From Eledone cirrhosa (Eukaryota): a stretch of 64,000 nucleotides of DNA. The translations under genes and the position numbers were made by a program. The stretch lies in contig OZ024748.1 in NCBI GenBank assembly GCA_964016885.1, positions 54,746,001 through 54,810,000 of the forward strand, in the 5' to 3' direction. The notes under the pieces are model-generated. The model had not been told where the DNA came from and did no database searches. It worked only from the letters and a program-made list of their open reading frames with translations. Shown here in pieces: positions 10,981 to 64,000 of this stretch. Each line of letters starts with the position of its first letter. The stretch's first letter is position 1.

Positions 10981-11940
10981 ATATCAGAAAATAATATATA
11001 TATATATGTGTGTGTGTGCGTGCGCATGTAATGGTTACTTTAATTGATGATATCGGCTATTTTCAAATGTATTGAACTTGCATATGGTAAAAAGAAAACC
11101 ACTATTAATTTGCCTAAAATCAAACTTTAGTAAGCTATATTATGTAGTTGTTTAATCTGCTAGAAACAGCAGCTAATAACCCGCCCTCATATCGCAGCGT
11201 ACCATAAAAACAACAACAACAAAAATAACACATTGGGTGGTGCTGTCTTACATACAATATCCTCGATGAAACGGACGGTCACGGTTGGAACACACATAAT
11301 AATAGATCTGCTTGTTTAGGTTTGTCCTGGTCATTGCCTTGACTCTTTGGTGCCGTTAGGGCAGTTTACTCTGTTACAAGCATTCAAGTCAGCTTAGGTC
11401 AGGTATTGATCAGTTTAACCCCCCCCCCCCCCCTCTCTCTCACCAATCTCGGAGGCTCTTAAAAAGTCAGTCTTTAATACGCCTTACCTGACTAAACAGT
11501 AATAAAAAAACACACAAAAAACACAACAGTAACAACATATTGAGGTAACACGTAAACAAATGTTTTTAGAAAAAGCCCCCCCCCCCCATATATATATATA
11601 TATATACGTGTGCGTATATATATATATATATATATATATACGCACACAAATATACAAAAACTCACACGAACATTTACCCTTAGTTCTTTCGTTGTTTTGG
11701 TATAGTATGGTTGGGTTTTGCCTACCGCAATTTTCAATTTTAACGTAATGTTATTACTCTAAGGACCTACCCTTATTGAGTGCTTTGCTACTCATTCCTT
11801 ATTGTAGGTCGACTTTACCTGGCCACAGCCAAAGCTTCCATTTTACTAAGCTTCCACATGTATATATATATATACACACACACATACATTTACAAAAAAC
11901 ACAAATACTACCACAAATATTATATATATGTATAAATATA

Positions 11941-12602
11941 TATATCAAAGATATATATTGAGTTAGGAACTCAAAATAGTCTCTTACAACAAAATTTGAA
12001 CACATATATGTAGATATCTGTGCAAAATTTGAACACATATGTATATATATCTATGTTCGTTTTTCTTTTATATTCTATTGTAATATACGGCTCGGAAATA
12101 TCTCTTTCTTAGAGCTATTTTGTTGTAAGAGACTATTTTGAGTTCCTAACTCAATATATACCTTTGATATATTCGGCTCCGTTAATTTGTTGAGCTATTT
12201 TAAATGTCAAATAAACCTGGCTGCGATTTTTAGTGGTGTAAGTTTGTGAGACACGCTAAGATACCATGTGCGCTATATTATATATAGCACACTATTCAGT
12301 TTCTTTATATACTTAGAAGTGTCTAGGATACTAATTCATCATTCACTGATGAGCTTGAATTGGTAATTCTATTCATAATTAACATTGCGAAACAACACCA
12401 AGTTGTCTGGGTGATTAGTAGTTACCACAATTGCGGTTTGTATTTATTTTCTTTATTTTCTTAAATTGTGACAAGCAAACCTAATTGTCTATAGTTAGTA
12501 TTCTTTCCACCTTAGCGAATCTGGTCCCTTACGATTTGGACACACATATGTATATATCTGTGTTCGTTTTTCTTTTTCTTTTTCTTTTATATTTTATTGT
12601 AG

Positions 12603-12604
<2 letters not shown>
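11941..12604 (+). mobile_element. Hammerhead-containing non-autonomous element (Penelope-like/retrozyme-like) between (TA)n tracts
   Basis: 55-bp inverted repeat (11941-11995 / 12117-12171); direct repeat of the 3' end (about 12027-12082 and 12533-12601); internal hammerhead; 3' fragment also at 17591-17640. Confidence 0.7.
12338..12415 (+). ncRNA. Type I hammerhead ribozyme motif (GUC)
   Basis: Stem I ATCATTCA/TGGGTGAT; CTGATGA 12346-12352; stem II closed by GC/GC with a long loop; GAAA 12389-12392; stem III ACAAC-accaa-GTTGT; predicted cleavage after C12407. Confidence 0.85.
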
Positions 12605-12683
<79 letters not shown>

Positions 12684-12691
<8 letters not shown>

Positions 12692-12909
12692 TAGCAGATT
12701 AAAGTTTAAGCAAAGAATCGCTGCTTTCACCCTCAACGGGATCTTCTGAACAGTTTCAGAAGATCCCGTTAAGGGTGAAAGCAGCGATTCTTTACTTAAA
12801 CTTTAATCTGTTATTTTAATAAATATTTGCTCTACGGTTCTTATATATTTGATATATATTTATCCTTATCGAGCCCTCTTTGGATTTTAGTGTTCAAATT
12901 TATTATTAT

Positions 12910-13060: not shown

Positions 13061-13530
13061 ATATTAGATAATGATTTAAGAATGAAAACAATAACAAAGT
13101 CAAGTTATTTTACCTATTCATATAATTGTTTTACGATCGTTTCGGAGGGTTGATCATATTGACATATTCACTGATCTATAGCAGTTATATAACTGTATAC
13201 TATCAGACATCATATATAGGTTCGATGAAACCGTGTTCTTTCCTATATATGATGTCTGATAGTATACAGTTATATAACTGCTATAGATCAGTCAATATGT
13301 CAATATGATCAACCCTCTGAAACGATCGTAAAACAATGATATGAATAGGTAAAATAACTTTGTTATTGTTTTCATTGTTAAATTAATATCTAATATCAGA
13401 CACTGTATCTAAGGGATTAACTCGGCGAAACACGGAACCGTTCTATGGATTTCACTGGATTACTCGCTATCGGATTATATTGAGTTCTATCTACGGTACG
13501 GACCCTATCACGAAGGGTAGACAACATTGA
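13061..13530 (+). mobile_element. Long fold-back cassette (arms about 160 bp) with unique tail ending in poly(A)/(TA)n
   Basis: Arms 13061-13220 and 13242-13396, 21-nt loop; each arm carries GAAACGATCGTA, a hammerhead 3' half with palindromic stem III. Confidence 0.7.
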
Positions 13531-13686: not shown

Positions 13687-13732
13687 AGTTAACAGAGTCT
13701 GTTTCACAGTGTTGGTGATCATCAGAGCAACC
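13687..13732 (-). ncRNA. Degenerate type I hammerhead motif (GUU)
   Basis: Reverse complement ggttgct-CTGATGA-tcaccaacactgt-GAAACAG-act-CTGTT-aact; core and stem III intact, stems I and II weak. Confidence 0.5.
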
Positions 13733-17541: not shown

Positions 17542-17593
<52 letters not shown>

Positions 17594-17647
17594 TCCCTTA
17601 CGAATTGAACACATATATGTCTGTGTTCGTTTTTCTTTTTTGTTCAG

Positions 17648-17681
<34 letters not shown>

Positions 17682-50101: not shown

Positions 50102-50190
50102 ACCATTACAACCACTACCACACTAACATCATTACAACTACTACCACCACTGCCGCAATTACCGCCACAACCACCACTACCATCACTAAC

Positions 50191-53100
50191 ACCACTACGA
50201 CCAACATCATCTAACACCACTACGACCAACATCATCTAACACCACTACGACCAACAACATATAACATCACTACGACCAACATCATCTAACACCACTACGA
50301 CGAACATCATCTAACACCAATACGACCAACAGCATCGAACATCACTACGACCAACAACATATAACATCACTACGACCAACATCATCTAACATCACTACGA
50401 CCAACAACATCTAACATCACTACGACCAACAGCATCTAACATCACAACGACCAACAACATGTAACATCACGACAACCAACAACATCTAACATCACTACGA
50501 CCAACAACATCTAACATCACTACGACCAACATCATCTAACACCACTACGACCAACAACATCTAACACCACTACGACCAACATCATCTAACACCACTACGA
50601 CCAACAACATCTAACACCACTACGACCAACAACATCTAAAACCACTACGACCAACAACATTTAACACCACTACGACCAACAATATCTAACACCACTACGA
50701 CCAACAACATCTAACACCACTACGACCAACAACATCTAACACCACTTCGACCAACAACATCTAACATCACTACGACCAACAGCATCTAACATCACTACAA
50801 CCAACATCATCTAACACCACTTCGACCAACAGCATCTAACACCACTACGACCAACATCATCTAACACCACTACGACCAACAACATCTAACACCACTACGA
50901 CCAACAACATCTAACATCACTACGACCAACATCATCTAACAACACTACGACCACCAACATCTAACATCACTACGACCAACATCATCTAACACCACTACGA
51001 CCAACAGCATCTAACATCACTACGACCAACAGCATCTAACATCACTACGACCAACATCATCTAACACCACTACGACCAACAGCATCTAACACCACTACGA
51101 CCAACATCATCTAACACCACTACGACCAACAACATCTAACACCACTACGACCAACAGCATCTAACACCACTACGACCAACAACATCTAACATCACTACGA
51201 CCAACAGCATATAACATCACTACGACCAACAGCATCTAACACCACTACGACCAACAACATCTAACATCACTACGACCAACAGCATCTAACACCACTACGA
51301 CCAACAGCATCTAACATCACTACGACCAACAACATCTAACATGACTACGACCAACAGCATCTAACATCACTACGACCAACAGCATCTAACACCACTACGA
51401 CCAACAACATCTAACATCACTACGACCAACAGCATCTAACACCACTACGACCAACAACATCTAACATCACTACGACCAACATCATCTAACACCACTACGA
51501 CCAAAAACATCAAACATCACGACAACCAACAACATCTAACACCACTACGACCAACAACATCTAACATCACTACGACCAACAGCATCTAACACCACTACGA
51601 CCAACAACATCTAACATCACTACGACCAACAGCATCTAACACCACTACGACCAACAACATCTAACATCACTACGACCAACAGCATATAACACCACTACGA
51701 CCAACATCATCTAACACCACTACGACCAAAAACATCAAACATCACGACAACCAACAACATCTAACACCACTACGACCAACAGCATCTAACATCACTAGGA
51801 CCAACAGCATGTAACATCACTACGACCAACAACATCTAACATCACTACGACCAACATCATCTAACACCACTACGACCAACAACATCTAACACCACTTCGA
51901 CCAACAACATCTAACATCACTACGACCAACAACATCTAACATCACTACGACCAACATCATCTAACATCACTAGGACCAACAGCATGTAACATCACTACGA
52001 CCAACAACATCTAACATCACTACGACCAACAGCATCTAACACCACTACGACCAACAACATCTAACACCACTTCGACCAACAACATCTAACATCACTACGA
52101 CCAACAACATCTAACATCACTACGACCAACATCATCTAACACCACTACGACCAACAACATCTAACACCACTACGACCAACATCATCTAACACCACTACGA
52201 CCAACAACATCTAACACCACTACGACCAACAACATCTAACACCACTACAACCAACAACATCGAAAACCACTACGACCAACAACATTTAACACCACTACGA
52301 CCAACAACATCTAACACCACTACGACCAACAACATCTAACACCACTACAACCAACAACATCTAACACCACTACGACCAACAACATCTAACATCACTACGA
52401 CCAACAGCATCCAACATCACTACGACCAACATCATCTAACACCACTACGACCAACAGCACCTAACACCACTACGACCAACATCATCTAACACCACTACGA
52501 CCAACAACATCTAACACCACTACGACCAACAGCATCTAACATCACTACGACCAACAGCATATAACATCACTACGACCAACAGCATCTAACACCACTACGA
52601 CCAACAACATCTAACATCACCACGACCAACAGCATCTAACACCACTACGACCAACAGCATCTAACATCACTACGACCAACAACATCTAACATGACTACGA
52701 CCAACAGCATCTAACAGCACTACGACCAACAGCATCTAACACCACTACGACCAACAACATCTAACATCACGACGACCAACAGCATCTAACACCACTACGA
52801 CCAACAACATCTAACATCACTACGACCAACAGCATCTAACACCACTACGACCAACATCATCTAACACCACTACGACCAACAACATCTAACACCACTACGA
52901 CCAAAAACATCAAACATCACGACAACCAACAACATCTAACACCACTACGACCAACAACATCTAACATCACTACGACCAACAGCATCTAACACCACTACGA
53001 CCAACAACATCTAACACCACTACGACCAAAAACATCAAACATCACGACAACCAACAACATCTAACACCACTACGACCAACAACATCTAACATCACTACGA

Positions 53101-56100
53101 CCAACAGCATCTAACACCACTACGACCAACAACATCTAACACCACTACGACCAACAATATCTAACATCACTACGACCAAAAACATCAAACATCACGACGA
53201 CCAACAGCATCTAACACCAGTACGATCAACAGCATCTAACACCACTACGACCAACAACATCTAACATGACTACGACCAACAGCATCTAACACCACTACGA
53301 CCAACAACATCTAACACCACTACGACCAAAAACATCAAACATCACGACAACCAACAGCATCTAACACCACTACGACCAACAGCATCTAACACCACTACGA
53401 CCAACAACATCTAACATCACTACGACCAACAGCATCTAACACCACTACGACCAACAACATCTAACACCACTACGACCAACAACATCTAACACCACTACGA
53501 CCAACAACATCTAACATCACTACGACCAACAGCATCTAACACCACTACGACCAACAACATCTAACACCACTACGACCAACAACATCTAACACCACTACGA
53601 CCAACAACATCTAACATCACTACGACCAACATCATCTAACACCTCTACGACCAACAACATTTAACACCACTACGACCAACAACATCTAACACCACTACGA
53701 CCAACATCATCTAACACCTCTACGACCAACAACATTTAACACCACTACGACCAACAACATCTAACATCACTACGACCAACAACATTTAACACCACTACGA
53801 CCAACAACATCTAACACCACTACGACCAACAGCATCTAACACCACTTCGACCAACAACATCTAACACCACTTCGACCAACAACATCTAACATCACTACGA
53901 CCAACAGCATCTAACACCACTTCGACCAACAGCATCTAACATCACTACGACCAACAGCATCTAACATCACTACGACCAACATCATCTAACACCACTACGA
54001 CCAACATCATCTAACACCACTTCGACCAACAGCATCTAACACCACTTCGACCAACAGCATCTAACACCACTACGACCAACATCATCTAACACCACTACGA
54101 CCAACAACATCTAACATCACTACGACTAACATATTCTAACATCACTACGACCAACAACATCTAACATCACTACAACCAACATCATCTAACACCACTACGA
54201 CCAACAGCATCTAACATCACTACGACCAACAGCATCTAACATCACTACGACCAACAACATCTAACACCACTACGACCAACAGCATCTAACACCACTACGA
54301 CCAACATCATCTAACACCACTACGACCAACAACATCTAACACCACTACGACCAACAGCATCTAACACCACTACGACCAACAACATCTAACATCACTACGA
54401 CCAACAGCATATAACATCACTACGACCAACAGCATCTAACACCACTACGACCAACAACATCTAACATCACTACGACCAACAGCATCTAACACCACTACGA
54501 CCAACAGCATCTAACATCACTACGACCAACAACATCTAACATGACTACGACCAACAGCATCTAACATCACTACGACCAACAGCATCTAACACCACTACGA
54601 CCAACAACATCTAACATCACTACGACCAACAGCATCTAACACCACTACGACCAACATCATCTAACACCACTACGACCAAAAACATCAAACATCACGACAA
54701 CCAACAACATCTAACACCACTACGACCAACAACATCTAACATCACTACGACCAACAGCATCTAACACCACTACGACCAACAGCATCTAACACCACTACGA
54801 CCAACAACATCTAACATAACTACGACCAACATCATCTAACACCACTACGACCAACAGCATCTAACACCACTACGACCAACAACATCTAACATCACTACGA
54901 CCAACAGCATCTAATACCACTACGACCAACAACATCAAACACCACTACGTCCAACAAAATCTAACACCACTACGACCAACAACATCTAACATCACTACGA
55001 CCAACATCATCTAACACCACTACCACCAAAAGCATCTAACATCACTACGACCAACAGCATCTAACATCACTACGATCAACATCATCTAACACCACTACGA
55101 CCAACAGCATCTAACACCACTACGACCAACATCATCTAACACCACTACGACCAACAACATCTAACCACACTACGACCAACAGCATCTCATATCACTACGA
55201 CCAACAGCATCTAACACCACTACGACCAACAACATCTAACATCACTACGACCAACACCATCTAACATCACTACGAACAACAGCATCTAACACCACTACGA
55301 CCAACAACATCTAACATCACTACGACCAACGGCATCTAACATCACTACGACCAACAGCATCTAACATCACTACGACCAACAGCATCTCATATCACTACGA
55401 CCAACAACATCTAACACCACTACGACCAACAACATCTAACATCACTACGACCAACACCATCTAACATCACTACGAACAACAGCATCTAACACCACTACGA
55501 CCAACAACATCTAACATCACTACGACCAACGGCATCTAACATCACTACGACCAACAGCATCTAACATCACTACGACCAACAGCATCTCATATCACTACGA
55601 CCAACAGCATCTAACACCACTACGACCAACAACATCTAACATCACTAAGACCAACACCATCTAACATCACTACGAACAACAGCATCTAACACCACTACGA
55701 CCAACAACATCTAACATCACTACGACCAACGGCATCTAACATCACTACGACCAACAGCATCTAACATCACTACGACCAACAGCATCTCATATCACTACGA
55801 CCAACAACATCTAACACCACTACGACCAACAACATCTATCACCACTACGAACAACAGCATCTAACATCACTACGACCAACAGCATCTAACACCACTAAAA
55901 CCAACAACATCTAACATCACAACAGCCAACAACATCTAACATCACTACGACCAACAGCATCTAACACCACTACGACCAACAACATCTAACATCACTACGA
56001 CCAACAGCATCTAACAACACTACGACCAACAGCATCTAACATCACTACGACCAACAGCATCTAACATCACTACGACCAACGGCATCTAACACCACTACGA

Positions 56101-59100
56101 CCAACAATATCTAACATCACCACAACCAACAGCATCTAACATCACTACGACCAACAGCATCTAACATCACTACGACCAACGGCATATAACACCACTACGA
56201 CCAACAATATCTAACATCACCACAACCAACAACATCTAACACCACTACGACCAACAACATCTAACATCACTACGACCAACAACATCTAACATCACTACGA
56301 CCAACAACATCTAACACCACTACGACCAACATCATCTAACATCACTACGACCAACAGCATCTAACACCACTACGACCAACAACATCTAACACCAGTACGA
56401 CCAACAGCATCTAACATCACTACGACCAACAGCATCTAACACCACTACGACCAACATCATCTAACAACACTACGACCAACAACATCTAACAGCACTACGA
56501 CCAACAGCATCTAACACCACTACGACCAACAACATCTAACATCACTACGACCAACAGCATCTAACATCACTACGACCAACAGCATCTAACATCACTACGA
56601 CCAACAGCATCTAACATCACTACGACCAACAGCATCTAACAACACTACGACCAACACCATCTAACATCACTACGAACAACAGCATCTAACACCACTACGA
56701 CCAACAACATCTAACACCACTACGACCAACATCATCTAACATCACTACGACCAACAGCATCTAACACCACTACGACCAACAACATCTAACACCAGTACGA
56801 CCAACAGCATCTAACATCACTACGACCAATAGCATCTAACACCACTACGACCAACAACATCTAACATCACGACAACCAACAACATCTAACACCACTACGA
56901 CCAACAGCATCTAATACCACTACGACCAACAACATCTAACATCACTACGACCAACAGCATCTAACACCACTACGACCAACATCATCTAACATCACTACGA
57001 CCAACAGCATCTAACATCACTACGACCAACAGCATCTAACACCACTACGACCAACAATATCTAACATCACTACGACCAACAGCATCTAACATCACTACGA
57101 CCAACAGCATCTAACACCACTACGACCAACAACATCTAACATCACTACTACCAACAGCATCTAACACCACTACGGCCAACAACATCTAACACCACTACGA
57201 CCAACAGCATCTAACACCACTACGACCAACATCATCTAACACCACTACGACCAACAACATCAAACATCACGACAACCAACAACATCTAACACCACTACGA
57301 CCAACAACATCTAACATCACTACGACCAACAGCATCTAACACCACTACGACCAACAACATCTAACACCACTACGACCAACAATATCTAACATCACTACGA
57401 CCAACATCATCTAACACCACTACGACCAACAGCATCTAACACCACTACGACCAACAACATCTAACATAACTACGACCAACATCATCTAACACCACTACGA
57501 CCAACAGCATCTAACACCACTACGACCAACAACATCTAACATCACTACGACCAACAGCATCTAACACCACTACGACCAACATCATCTAACATCACTACGA
57601 CCAACAGCATCTAACACCACTACGACCAACAGCATCTAACACCACTACGACTAACAACATCTAACATAACTACGACCAACATCATCTAACACCACTACGA
57701 CCAACAGCATCTAACACCACTACGACCAACAACATCTAACATCACTACGACCAACAGCATCTAACACCACTACGACCAACAACATCAAACACCACTACGT
57801 CCAACAAAATCTAACACCACTACGACCAACAACATCTAACATCACTACGACCAACATCATCTAACACCACTACGACCAAAAGCATCTAACATCACTACGA
57901 CCAACAGCATCTAACATCACTACGATCAACATCATCTAACACCACTACGACCAACAGCATCGAACACCACTACGACCAACATCATCTAACACCACTACGA
58001 CCAACAACATCTAACCACACTACGACCAACAGCATCTCATATCACTACGACCAACAGCATCTAACACCACTACGACCAACAACATCTAACATCACTACGA
58101 CCAACACCATCTAACATCACTACGAACAACAGCATCTAACACCACTACGACCAACAACATCTAACATCACTACGACCAACGGCATCTAACATCACTACGA
58201 CCAACAGCATCTAACACCACTAAAACCAACAACATCTAACATCACGACAGCCAACAACATCTAACATCACTACGACCAACAGCATCTAACACCACTACGA
58301 CCAACAACATCTAACATCACTACGACCAACAGCATCTAACACCACTACGACCAACAGCATCTAACATCACTACGACCAACAGCATCTAACATCACTACGA
58401 CCAACAGCATCTAACACCACTACGACCAACAATATCTAACATCACTACGACCAACAGCATCTAACATCACTACGACCAACAGCATCTAACACCACTACGA
58501 CCAACAACATCTAACATCACTACTACCAACAGCATCTAACACCACTACGGCCAACAACATCTAACACCACTACGACCAACAGCATCTAACACCACTACGA
58601 CCAACATCATCTAACACCACTACGACCAACAACATCAAACATCACGACAACCAACAACATCTAACACCACTACGACCAACAACATCTAACATCACTACGA
58701 CCAACAGCATCTAACACCACTACGACCAACAACATCTAACACCACTACGACCAACAATATCTAACATCACTACGACCAACATCATCTAACACCACTACGA
58801 CCAACAGCATCTAACACCACTACGACCAACAACATCTAACATAACTACGACCAACATCATCTAACACCACTACGACCAACAGCATCTAACACCACTACGA
58901 CCAACAACATCTAACATCACTACGACCAACAGCATCTAACACCACTACGACCAACATCATCTAACATTACTACGACTAACAGCATCTAACATCACTACGA
59001 CCAACAGCATCTAACACCACTATGACCAACAATATCTAACATCACTACGAACAACAGCATCTAACATCACTACGACCAACATCATCTAACATCACTACTA

Positions 59101-62100
59101 CCAACAACATCTAACATCACTACGACCAACAATATCTAACATCACTACGACCAACATCATCTAACACCACTACGACCAACAGCATCTAACACCACTACGA
59201 CCAACAACATCTAACATCACTACGACCAACAGCATCTAACACCACTACGACCAACAACATCAAACACCACTACGTCCAACAATATCTAACACCACTACGA
59301 CCAACAACATCTAACATCACTACGACCAACAACATCTAACATCACTACGACCAACAACATCTAACATCACTACGACCAACAGCATCTAACATCACTACGA
59401 CCAACGGCATCTAACACTACTACGACCAACAATATCTAACATCACCACAACCAACAACATCTAACACCACTACGACCAACAACATCTAACATCACTACGA
59501 CCAACAACATCTAACATCACTACGACCAACAACATCTAACACCACTACGACCAACATCATCTAACATCACTACGACCAACAGCATCTAACACCACTACGA
59601 CCAACAACATCTAACACCAGTACGACCAACAGCATCTAACATCACTACGACCAACAGCATCTAACACCACTACGACCAACATCATCTAACAACACTACGA
59701 ACAACAGCATCTAACACCACTACGACCAACAACATCTAACACCACTACGACCAACATCATCTAACATCACTACGACCAACAGCATCTAACACCACTACGA
59801 CCAACAACATCTAACACCAGTACGACCAACAGCATCTAACATCACTACGACCAACAGCATCTAACACCACTACGACCAACAACATCTAACATCACGACAA
59901 CCAACAACATCTAACACCACTACGACCAACAGCATCTAATACCACTACGACCAACAACATCTAACATCACTACGACCAACAGCATCTAACACCACTACGA
60001 CCAACAGCATCTAACATCACTACGACCAACAGCATCTAACATCACTATGACCAACAGCATCTAACACCACTACGACCAACAATATCTAACATCACTACGA
60101 CCAACAGCATCTAACACCACTACGACCAACAGCATCTAACACCACTACGACCAACAACATCTAACATCACTACTACCAACAGCATCTAACACCACTACGG
60201 CCAACAACATCTAACACCACTACGACCAACAGCATCTAACACCACTACGACCAACATCATCTAACACCACTACGACCAACAACATCAAACATCACGACAA
60301 CCAACAACATCTAACACCACTACGACCAACAACATCTAACATCACTACGACCAACAGCATCTAACACCACTACGACCAACAACATCTAACACCACTACGA
60401 CCAACAATATCTAACATCACTGCGACCAACATCATCTAACACCACTACGACCAACAACATCTAACATAACTACGACCAACATCATCTAACACCACTACGA
60501 CCAACAGCATCTAACACCACTACGACCAACAACATCTAACATCACTACGACCAACAGCATCTAACACCACTACGACCAACATCATCTAACATTACTACGA
60601 CCAACAGCATCTAACATCACTACGACCAACAGCATCTAACACCACTATGACCAACAATATCTAACATCACTACGAACAACAGCATCTAACATCACTACGA
60701 CCAACATCATCTAACATCACTACTACCAACAACATCTAACATCACTACGACCAACAATATCTAACATCACTACGACCAACATCATCTAACACCACTACGA
60801 CCAACAGCATCTAACACCACTACGACCAACAACATCTAACATCACTACGACCAACAGCATCTAACACAACTACGACCAACAACATCAAACACCACTACGT
60901 CCAACAACATCTAACATCACTACGACCAACAACATCTAACATCACTACGACCAACAACATCTAACATCACTACGACCAACAACATCTAACATCACTACGA
61001 CCAACAACATCTAACACCAGTACGACCAACAACATCTAACATCACTACGACCAACAACATCTAACACCAGTACGACCAACAGCATCTAACATCACTACGA
61101 CCAACAGCATCTAACACCATTACGACCAACAACATCTAACATCACGACAACCAACAACATCTAACACCACTACGACCAAAAGCATCTAACACCACTACGA
61201 CCAACAACATCTAACATCACTACGACCAACAGCATCTAACACCACTACGACCAACAGCATCTAACATCACTACGACCAACAGCATCTAACATCACTACGA
61301 CCAACAGCATCTAACACCACTACGACCAACAATATCTAACATCACTACGAACAACAGCATCTAACATCACTACGACCAACATCATCTAACATCACTACTA
61401 CCAACAACATCTAACATCACTACGACCAACATCATCTAACACCACTACGACCAACAGCATCTAACATCACTACGACGAACAGCATCTAACATCACTACGA
61501 CCAACATCATCTAACACCACTACGACCAACAGCATCTAACATCACTACGACCAACAGCATCTAACACCACTACGACCAACAACATCTAATATCACTACGA
61601 CCAACACCATCTAACATCACTACGAACAACAGCATCTAACACCACTACGACCAACAACATCTAACACCACTACGACCAACATCATCTAACATCACTACGA
61701 CCAACAGCATCTAACACCACTACGACCAACATCATCTAACATCACTACGACCAACAGCATCTAACATCACTACGACCAACAGCATCTAACACCACTACGA
61801 CCAACAATATCTAACATCACTACGACCAACAGCATCTAACATCACTACGACCAACAGAATCTAACACCACTACGACCAACAACATCTAACATCACTACGA
61901 CCAACATCATCTAACATCACTACGACCAACAACATCTAACATCACTACGCCCAACAGCATCTAACATCACTACGACCAACATCATCTAACATCACTACTA
62001 CGAACAACATCTAACATCACTACGACCAACAACATCTAACATCACTACGACCAACATCATCTAACACCACTACGACCAACAGCATCTAACATCACTACGA

Positions 62101-64000
62101 CCAACAGAATCTAACATCACTACGACCAACATCATCTAACACCACTACAACCAACAGCATCTAACACCACTACGACCAACAACATCTAACATCACTACGA
62201 CCAACACCATCTAACATCACTACGAACAACAGCATCTAACATCACTACGACCAACAGCATCTAACATCACTACGACCAACAGCATCTAACACCACTACGA
62301 CCAACAACATCTAACACCACTACAACCAACAGCATCTAACACCACTTCGACCAACAACATCTACCACCACTACGACCAACATCATCTAACATCACTACGA
62401 CCAACAGCATCTAACACCACTACGACCAACAACATCTAACATCACTACGACCAACATCATCTAACACCACTACGACCAACAACATCTAACATCACTACGA
62501 CCAACAGCATCTAACATCACTACGACCAACAGCATCTAACATCACTACGACCAACAGCATCTAAGACCACTACGACCAACAACATCTAACATCACGACAA
62601 CCAACAACATCTAACACCACTACGACCAACAACATCTAACACCACTACGACCAACAGCATCTAACACCAGTACGACCAACAACATCTAACATCACTACGA
62701 CCAACAGCATCTAACATCACTACGACCAACAGCATCTAACACCACTACAACCAACAGCATCTAACACCAGTACGACCAACAACATCTAACATCCCTACGA
62801 CCATCAGCATCTAACATCACTACGACCAACAGCATCTAACATCACTACGACCAACAGCATCTAACACCACTACGACCAACAATATCTAACATCACTACGA
62901 ACAACAGCATCTAACATCACTACGACCAACATCATCTAACACCACTACGACCAACAGCATCTAACATCACTACGACCAACAGCATCTAACACCACTACGA
63001 CCAACAATATCTAACATCACTACGAACAACAGCATCTAACATCACTACGACCAACATCATCTAACATCACTACTACCAACAACATCTAACATCACTACGA
63101 CCAACAACATCAAACATCACGACAACCAACAACATCTAACACCACTACGACCAACAGCATCTAACATCACTACGACGAACAGCATCTAACATCACTACGA
63201 CCAACATCATCTAACACCACTACGACCAACAGCATCTAACATCACTACGACCAACACCATCTAACATTACTACGAACAACAGCATCTAACACCACTACGA
63301 CCAACAACATCTAACACCACTACGACCAACATCATCTAACATCACTACGACCAACAGCATCTAACACCACTACGACCAACAGCATCTAAGACCACTACGA
63401 CCAACATCATCTAACATCACTACGACCAACAGCATCTAACATCACTACGACCAACAGCATCTAACACCACTACGACCAACAATATCTAACATCACTACGA
63501 CCAACAGCATCTAACATCACTACGACCAACAGCATCTAACACCACTACGACCAACAACATCTAACATCACTACGACCAACATCATCTAACATCACTACGA
63601 CCAACAACATCTAACATCACTACGACCAACATCATCTAACACCACTACGACCAACAACATCTAACATAACTACGACCAACATCATCTAACACCACTACGA
63701 CCAACAGCATCTAACACCACTACAACCAACAGCATCTAACACCACTACGACCAACAACATCTAACATCACTACGACCAACACCATCTAACATCACTACGA
63801 ACAACAGCATCTAACATCACTACGACCAACAGCATCTAACATCACTACGACCAACAGCATCTAACACCACTACGACCAACAACATCTAACACCACTACGA
63901 CCAACAGCATCTAACACCACTTCGACCAACAACATCTACCACCACTACGACCAACAACATCTAACATCACTACGACCAACAGCATCTAACACCACTACGA
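50191..64000. repeat. 25-bp satellite array, about 552 units, running off the window end
   Basis: Consensus A(C/T)CACTACGACCAACA(A/G/T)CATCTAAC; same phase at 50191 and 63991 (13,800 = 552 x 25). Confidence 0.98.

Follow-up and report, generated by a model that had tools for sequence, protein, structure and literature searches.

A dispersed hammerhead ribozyme element with Penelope-type insertion anatomy in the genome of Eledone cirrhosa

Animal non-LTR retrozymes have been described as tandem non-coding units with type I hammerhead ribozymes, for which circles are reported in coral, mussel and axolotl and Penelope-like elements (PLEs) were proposed as carriers (Cervera and de la Pena 2020, PMC7229834). 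A later account derives animal retrozymes from the pseudo-LTRs (pLTRs) of PLEs, with pLTR homology to a resident PLE in 24 of 57 Xenopus families (Li, Clavereau, Pollet 2026, bioRxiv 10.64898/2026.07.22.740005). PLEs themselves form partial tandems and inverted 5' copies at (TA)n targets (PMC8557442), and a PLE reverse transcriptase (RT) was reported to start at two internal sites, to prefer AT-rich DNA and to need no ribozyme cleavage (PMC11167929). Of further relevance to the ribozyme itself, pseudoknots are found in about 40% of hammerheads and raise the cleavage rate, and a compensatory U3-A8 core pair is a natural, active variant (PMC3088659). These accounts follow the portions of the cited reports drawn on here.

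The locus compared with these systems lies in the window, the whole 64-kb stretch of DNA that was analysed. It is probably one dispersed copy of a non-autonomous hammerhead retroelement that can be grouped with the animal non-LTR retrozymes and that depends for its movement on a Penelope-like RT/GIY-YIG protein supplied in trans, probably of the Neptune clade. No description of its family, termed family 1, was found in the literature searched, which was chiefly openly readable papers.

The hammerhead and its insertion in the window

The initial annotation had described a textbook GUC hammerhead with a full core, a G10.1-C11.1 pair and a 5-bp stem III, and this was borne out by both the sequence and a shuffle scan (Table 1). 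The core comprises CUGAUGA and GAAA (12389-12392), stem II is closed by G12353-C12388 (10.1-11.1) followed by a C-G pair, and stem III (12392-12396/12402-12406) leads to the GUC triplet ending at 12407. When the window was scanned for a core with the G-C pair, a stem III of at least 4 bp and a stem I of at least 5 bp, this hammerhead was the single match, and the same scan returned 0 matches in 300 dinucleotide shuffles of the window. The 8-bp stem I is also present, although two of its pairs are G-U wobbles (U12342, U12343) where the family has G-C. The extension of this stem by tactaat/attagta, also proposed initially, holds only in part: the full 8-bp stem cannot be extended in this way, since both use 12414-12415, and what is available is at most 5 bp after a 4-nt bulge. 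A distal extension of stem I was absent from both sister families described below. Judged by its sequence, 12338-12415 is a real type I hammerhead motif, for which self-cleavage after C12407 is predicted.

Table 1. Features of the insertion and of its hammerhead, by position in the window.
Feature	Position	Strand	Basis
Inverted 5' piece of the insertion (unit 91-146); outward end is terminus 2, then an AT-rich run	11940..11995	-	98% inverted match to 12117-12172
Short duplicate of the unit's first ~29 nt at the inversion joint	11994..12022	+	Other copies map there; repeat family D5
Full 507-nt non-coding unit, subfamily A	12027..12533	+	95% identical to the 505-nt consensus; each of the six frames contains stops
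Internal site of terminus 2, on the circular unit 272 nt beyond the cut	12172..12172	+	65/219 segment ends exactly here
Tail 5' of stem I, one strand of the predicted pseudoknot, may reach 12325	12329..12337	+	Complementarity with 12357-12365, with covariation among subfamilies and sister families
Stem I 5' strand with two C>T changes (G-C to G-U)	12338..12345	+	Sequence; duplex -6.0 vs -11.4 kcal/mol
Catalytic core CUGAUGA	12346..12352	+	Sequence
Stem II (2 Watson-Crick pairs and two U-U) and long loop II	12353..12388	+	Subfamily B: 4 Watson-Crick pairs
GAAA, 5-bp stem III with ACCAA loop, GUC; predicted cut after 12407	12389..12407	+	Sequence; stem III covariation
Stem I 3' strand, with which the cleavage product is predicted to begin	12408..12415	+	Sequence; breakpoints here in other copies
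Start of the second unit up to terminus 1, with local TTTTC expansion	12534..12605	+	'Terminal repeat' of the initial annotation
3'-flanking (TA)n microsatellite, inferred to be the target site	12606..12686	.	Like flank in 57/89 copies

The top Rfam match for 12338-12415, RAGATH-1-hammerhead only, reached 18.8 bits against a gathering score of 56.3 and missed the threshold by so much because loop II is long; among the 150 of 279 matches listed from the Rfam scan of the whole window, there was nothing but miRNA noise driven by microsatellites. The predicted minimum free energy (MFE) folds of 12338-12415 and 12325-12425 (ViennaRNA) are not the hammerhead, the favoured hairpin burying its core. 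The nine bases 5' of stem I can pair with the start of loop II, and from this complementarity a pseudoknot between the stem I tail and loop II is predicted. Its first pair is C-G in 42, U-A in 10 and U-G in 10 of 69 family 1 regions, both strands are lengthened by U and A runs in an older subfamily of family 1, and the two sister families have a tail/loop duplex in the same register with different letters. Duplexes as good were obtained with 6 (family 1), 24 and 27 (families 2 and 3) of 2000 shuffled loops. As the tail/loop II helix is also part of the predicted inactive hairpin, we only infer a role for the pseudoknot.

With regard to the host element, the reported inversion was found, with 56-nt arms of 98% identity (11940-11995/12117-12172). 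The reported copy of the 3' end some 510 bp upstream is likewise real (12027-12082/12534-12589, spacing 507), but it is the start of a second unit, and hence a partial tandem, and not a terminal repeat. Read from its 5' side, the insertion consists of an inverted piece and a short duplicate, then a complete unit, then 60 nt of the next one as far as terminus 1, with (TA)n beyond; this layout is typical for the family. Loose ends at 12172 running into (TA)n were also seen in DNA contigs and reads (runs X1, X4, X7).

As a ribozyme, however, the window copy is a poor representative of its family. Its two C>T changes weaken stem I to -6.0 from -11.4 kcal/mol, and it ranks 71st of 78 family members, and 21st of 22 in its own subfamily, in fold accessibility. 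Constraining its ensemble to the hammerhead costs 12.1 kcal/mol relative to the free ensemble, a gap that is overstated as the comparison leaves the pseudoknot out, so that the ranking is a guide. It holds 1.1 units and a single ribozyme, so it could not release a monomer by double cleavage. Its designation as the best candidate for monomeric activity therefore stands against the other, minimal motifs of the window but not within the family, and it is probably a weakened passenger.

Several other features were noted in the window. A short, 5'-truncated family 1 fragment (17588-17658, 84%) ends at terminus 1. Further hammerhead-like cores with a short or palindromic stem III lie at 13725(-), 13968(-), 14071(+), 17866(-), 29337(+), 29786(+) and 38358(-); as comparable minimal motifs adjoin PLE open reading frames (ORFs) elsewhere (L146, L154, L185), several more PLE-related families are indicated in the window. 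Near-perfect palindromes at 12679-12826 (72-nt arms) and 13102-13360 (119-nt arms) are probably head-to-head termini of other PLE-type insertions; the former matches pieces in L179 and L189 and has a (TA)n run in common with the element. From 50186 to 64000, a satellite with a 25-nt period, more than 550 copies, higher-order periods of 75/125/200 nt and strong strand skew runs off the end of the window.

Genomic copies, sister families and selection on the ribozyme

In the 3.0-Gb assembly, 584 exact matches were counted for the 25-mer that follows the cut and 785 for an 18-mer, against 0 for reversed controls, which puts the unit at 785 genomic copies or more. A 381-nt query gave 1963 candidates, and among the 40 that were scored, full-length ones are 91-94% identical. 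Mapping of 117 loci on a 505-nt consensus showed a circularly permuted unit of 505-507 nt in which position 505 joins position 1. The unit is non-coding, a few hundred nucleotides long and low in GC, and it bears a type I hammerhead.

An unbiased sample of 89 loci was chosen by the 25-mer alone, all on contig C1 and with one duplicate removed. The main segment has its 3' end at unit position 53-62 in 41 of these loci and at 133-149 in 33 (together 74/89), giving two fixed termini, 184-187 (terminus 1) and 272 nt (terminus 2) past the cut. A TA run follows the main segment in 57/89 loci, an inverted piece lies on its 5' side in 57/89, and more than one unit is present in 34/89, the longest copy measuring 827 nt. 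Across the 117 mapped loci, inverted pieces end mostly at the same two termini. The partial tandems, inverted 5'-truncated copies, AT-rich or microsatellite targets and two internal 3' termini are insertion features of the PLE type. The head-to-tail joins, the absence of an ORF and the share of copies exceeding one unit also support the initial suggestion of a retrozyme-like element copied from circular or tandem RNA. Consecutive units with complete hammerheads were found in L006, L072 and copies of families 2 and 3, and not in the window copy; since two complete ribozymes in direct tandem occur only in L072 (1/89 unbiased loci) and L006, sources of a doubly cut monomer are rare in family 1. 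In a separate case (L075), a 93-nt internal piece (unit 437-24) is present as four tandem copies in one insertion, which suggests repeated template jumps.

Two sister families were traced via relatives nested beside PLE loci. Family 2 has a non-coding 547-nt unit (27 loci mapped, mostly 96-100% identical to the consensus, up to 1166 nt) and family 3 a non-coding 560-nt unit (17 loci mapped, up to 1137 nt); over aligned positions, they are 71% and 69% identical to family 1. Their insertion anatomy matches that of family 1, with termini 184/266 nt (family 2) and 172/257 nt (family 3) past their own cut and with 20/36 segment ends of family 3 at its two termini. Family 2 (L195-L224), some copies of which exceed two units, is the youngest by its 96-100% identity. 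Further relatives (L248, L249, L172, L165) differ from the known units in stem I letters or have about 80% identity, so the superfamily comprises more than three families.

Within family 1, the core is intact in only 78/128 regions, 75 of these 78 having GUC. Hammerhead pairing was kept in 92% of cells, against 25-40% in slid controls (69 regions, hand-picked across subfamilies). Of the 69 regions, 36 have G-C and 25 have A-U at one stem III pair, and two extra A-U pairs are present in stem II of subfamily B where the window's subfamily has U-U. Such covarying-cell counts stand for few inherited events, and only 2 pairs changed on both sides in the 69 regions, no better than a shuffle. Stronger sequence evidence is provided by the compensatory changes of the sister families, in both of which the letters of stem I are fully replaced while its 8 bp remain paired. 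Stem III extends to about 25-27 bp in these families, and a U3-A8 core was seen in 20/20 top family 3 matches (the query itself carrying U3-A8). The retention of the fold with other stems, a U3-A8 swap and the predicted pseudoknot indicates that the lineage has been under selection.

Carrier, template and alternative explanations

The genome contains 10,597 GIY-YIG candidates, at least 150 of which were scored, and 3 of the 4 ORFs scanned combine RVT_1 with GIY-YIG. Two PLE ORFs show a CxxxxCxxC linker; a Cys-rich linker is ascribed to Neptune/Nematis PLEs (PMC8557442, in the part consulted). In a resident PLE family, 11/13 loci run out into TA 179-210 nt beyond the family's own minimal hammerhead-like motif, and inverted pieces occur in this family too. 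Among L145-L172, the 3' UTR of a PLE family with the Cys-rich linker was seen to contain a minimal hammerhead-like motif with U3-A8, with GUA as its triplet and with the palindrome CCGG in its stem III. By analogy, the PLE RT of PMC11167929, as far as that report was drawn on, is the closest mechanistic match to the two-terminus insertion pattern.

On the preferred reading, source copies would be transcribed, and the type I hammerhead, held by the pseudoknot of 5' tail and loop II, would cut after GUC in part of the RNA. A PLE protein would nick (TA)n DNA, and reverse transcription would start internally at one of the two sites, 184-187 or 272 nt past the cut. The cDNA would usually pass an intact or religated cut site, in a circle or an uncleaved tandem RNA, and stop at random, and a second priming event would give rise to the inverted 5' piece. 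Counting against this reading are the lack of sequence shared with an autonomous PLE in 50 PLE loci, the rarity of double-ribozyme tandems, the limited share of intact cores, the small number of inherited events behind the covariation counts, the fact that breakpoint enrichment at the cut did not recur in families 2 and 3, and the in vitro cleavage of only 1/9 predicted retrozymes in the portion of bioRxiv 10.64898/2026.07.22.740005 considered.

Traces of cleavage were sought among copies in which both bases before the cut are foreign, with a control position 7 nt downstream. At the family 1 cut site, the 10 matches comprised six element 5' ends (five inversion joints and one TA flank), three deletions ending at the cut and one point mutant, whereas the control gave 14 matches with 2 junctions. 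Against the background rate, six such ends have a P(>=6) of 0.002-0.014, although 6 vs 2 alone gives P 0.14. Neither family 2 (1 vs 1) nor family 3 (0 vs 0) had an excess at the cut, and the family 1 breakpoints may be taken as a hint of cleavage from sequence. A hazard test of 5' ends near the cut (96 pattern matches, 8 within 6 nt vs 2.3 expected) was discarded, only 2 being exact and several being BLAST breaks at a loop III insertion. As 88 of the 96 copies extend at least 7 nt upstream of the cut, that is, read through it, the usual template was circular or uncleaved. A divergent RT-PCR product, put forward initially as a sign of a circle, would also be expected from genomic copies longer than one unit and from linear transcripts of these.

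The alternative that survives best is a non-autonomous PLE derivative copied solely from linear, uncleaved tandem transcripts, the hammerhead trimming ends or being rarely used and no circle being formed; it is a serious contender, if on balance not the expected one. Such copying would account for the read-through and agrees with PLE insertion in vitro being independent of cleavage (PMC11167929, in the part consulted), with the core change A9C found in both pieces of L078, and with the sharing of rare variants in family 1, which is 1.4 per kb in direct duplicates vs 2.7 per kb in inverted pairs. Linear copying, however, cannot lengthen its source, yet full units persist in three families, and family 2 has no direct/inverted difference in rare-variant sharing. 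Circular folds are also more stable than shuffles (z -2.6 for the window unit, -4.8 and -6.5 for consensus; 30 shuffles), and duplicates within an insertion have 1.4-1.5 rare variants per kb in common, 7-9x the 0.17-0.18 between loci, although these two results fit a circle and a tandem source alike.

A bolder version of the circular template, put forward tentatively, is that a superfamily of pseudoknot-hammerhead circular RNAs may serve as direct rolling templates for PLE proteins. The genome would then record internal priming, read-through of the religated cut and, in a minority (the six 5' ends and three deletions of family 1), termination right at the 5'-OH end of a linear RNA after cleavage. 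If true, this would supply genomic evidence both of cleavage in vivo and of the PLE-driven circular-RNA route that has been proposed for animal retrozymes.

The initial annotation had also considered a PLE pseudo-LTR, in which case the unit would belong to an autonomous PLE and its copies would be 5'-truncated insertions. The insertion anatomy is indeed equal to that of PLEs, and unit relatives lie next to PLE ORFs in 4/50 PLE loci. Directly upstream of unit position 1, however, lies position 505/507 of the unit and never an ORF: no PLE ORF abutted the 5' end of the unit in sense in any of 117 loci, and nine PLE proteins gave only 2 matches in the 117 5' flanks, both antisense and neither at the junction. 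The four relatives beside PLE ORFs are insertions in their own right, each in two pieces and lodged in the PLE's (TA)n tail, and no homology to the unit was found in the UTRs of 50 of the at least 150 PLE loci. Nor was a relic ORF indicated, with no informative tblastx match to 20 PLE loci among the matches listed. This explanation is thus largely refuted and unlikely; the unit is a non-coding passenger, for which no autonomous partner was found in the partial sample of 50 PLE loci.

Transport by a LINE-type (L1/RTE/CR1) enzyme was also considered, the element then being SINE-like and its inversions arising by twin priming. L1 insertions also yield 5' truncation with inversion. The copies, however, have no poly(A) or simple-repeat tail of their own, and their two internal termini, at which the inverted pieces end too, lie at a conserved distance from the cut; this explanation is improbable. 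Finally, a chance hammerhead look-alike in a DNA-level repeat, as the missed Rfam thresholds and the non-hammerhead MFE fold might suggest, is very improbable in view of the 0/300 shuffles and the compensatory changes in stems I and III, core and pseudoknot.

Comparison with known systems

The comparisons below refer to the parts of the cited descriptions that were compared. At family level and on sequence grounds, the element can be classed as an animal non-LTR retrozyme, with which it has in common a non-coding low-GC unit, a canonical type I hammerhead, head-to-tail joins, co-occurrence with PLEs and many solo copies. Its unit of 505-560 nt compares with 150-450 (PMC7229834) and 51-972 (bioRxiv 10.64898/2026.07.22.740005) in retrozymes. 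Whereas animal retrozymes lie in long arrays, copies here are mostly about one unit and at most 2.1, and the fixed internal 3' termini, inverted 5' pieces and (TA)n targets do not appear in the retrozyme descriptions compared. A predicted pseudoknot takes the place of the retrozyme loop-loop contacts, and no pLTR homologue was present in 50 PLE loci here. Target-site duplications of retrozymes, when present, exceed 4 bp; the ends of the copies here lie in TA runs, which would mask a duplication.

Partial tandems, inverted 5'-truncated copies, AT-rich or microsatellite targets and two internal RT start sites downstream of the hammerhead are common to the element and EN+ PLEs (Neptune, Poseidon; PMC8557442, PMC11167929). 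Unlike these, it has no RT/GIY-YIG ORF, its hammerhead is full, with a stem III of at least 5 bp, and not of the minimal dimer type, and its termini lie 82-88 nt apart. Non-autonomous Chlamys elements such as MRC1 (PMC8557442) are also non-coding PLE passengers with pLTR-like partial tandems, but they occur in green algae, have 3' sequence in common with an autonomous partner, and belong to a clade described, in the part of that report compared, without canonical hammerheads. As in the pseudoknotted hammerheads of Perreault et al. 2011 (PMC3088659), there is a predicted paired contact between the regions of stem I and stem II, a short stem II and a natural U3-A8 variant; the differences are a high-copy animal retroelement as host, a long predicted helix of 7-13 bp between 5' tail and loop II, and the stem III of about 25-27 bp in the sister families.

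Retrozyme papers name PLEs as the likely carrier and leave the mechanism open, whereas here the passenger itself bears the PLE signature, with two RT start sites that keep nearly the same distance from the cut in all three families, close to the spacing of the resident PLE. These families could supply the in vitro assay of PMC11167929 with defined RNA templates, start sites and candidate enzymes, and hammerhead structure-function work with a natural series (pseudoknot length, U3-A8, short and very long stem III, weakened stem II). Relative to the known retrozymes, as far as their descriptions were compared, what is new is the combination of dispersed insertions of about one unit, full PLE anatomy and a predicted pseudoknot.
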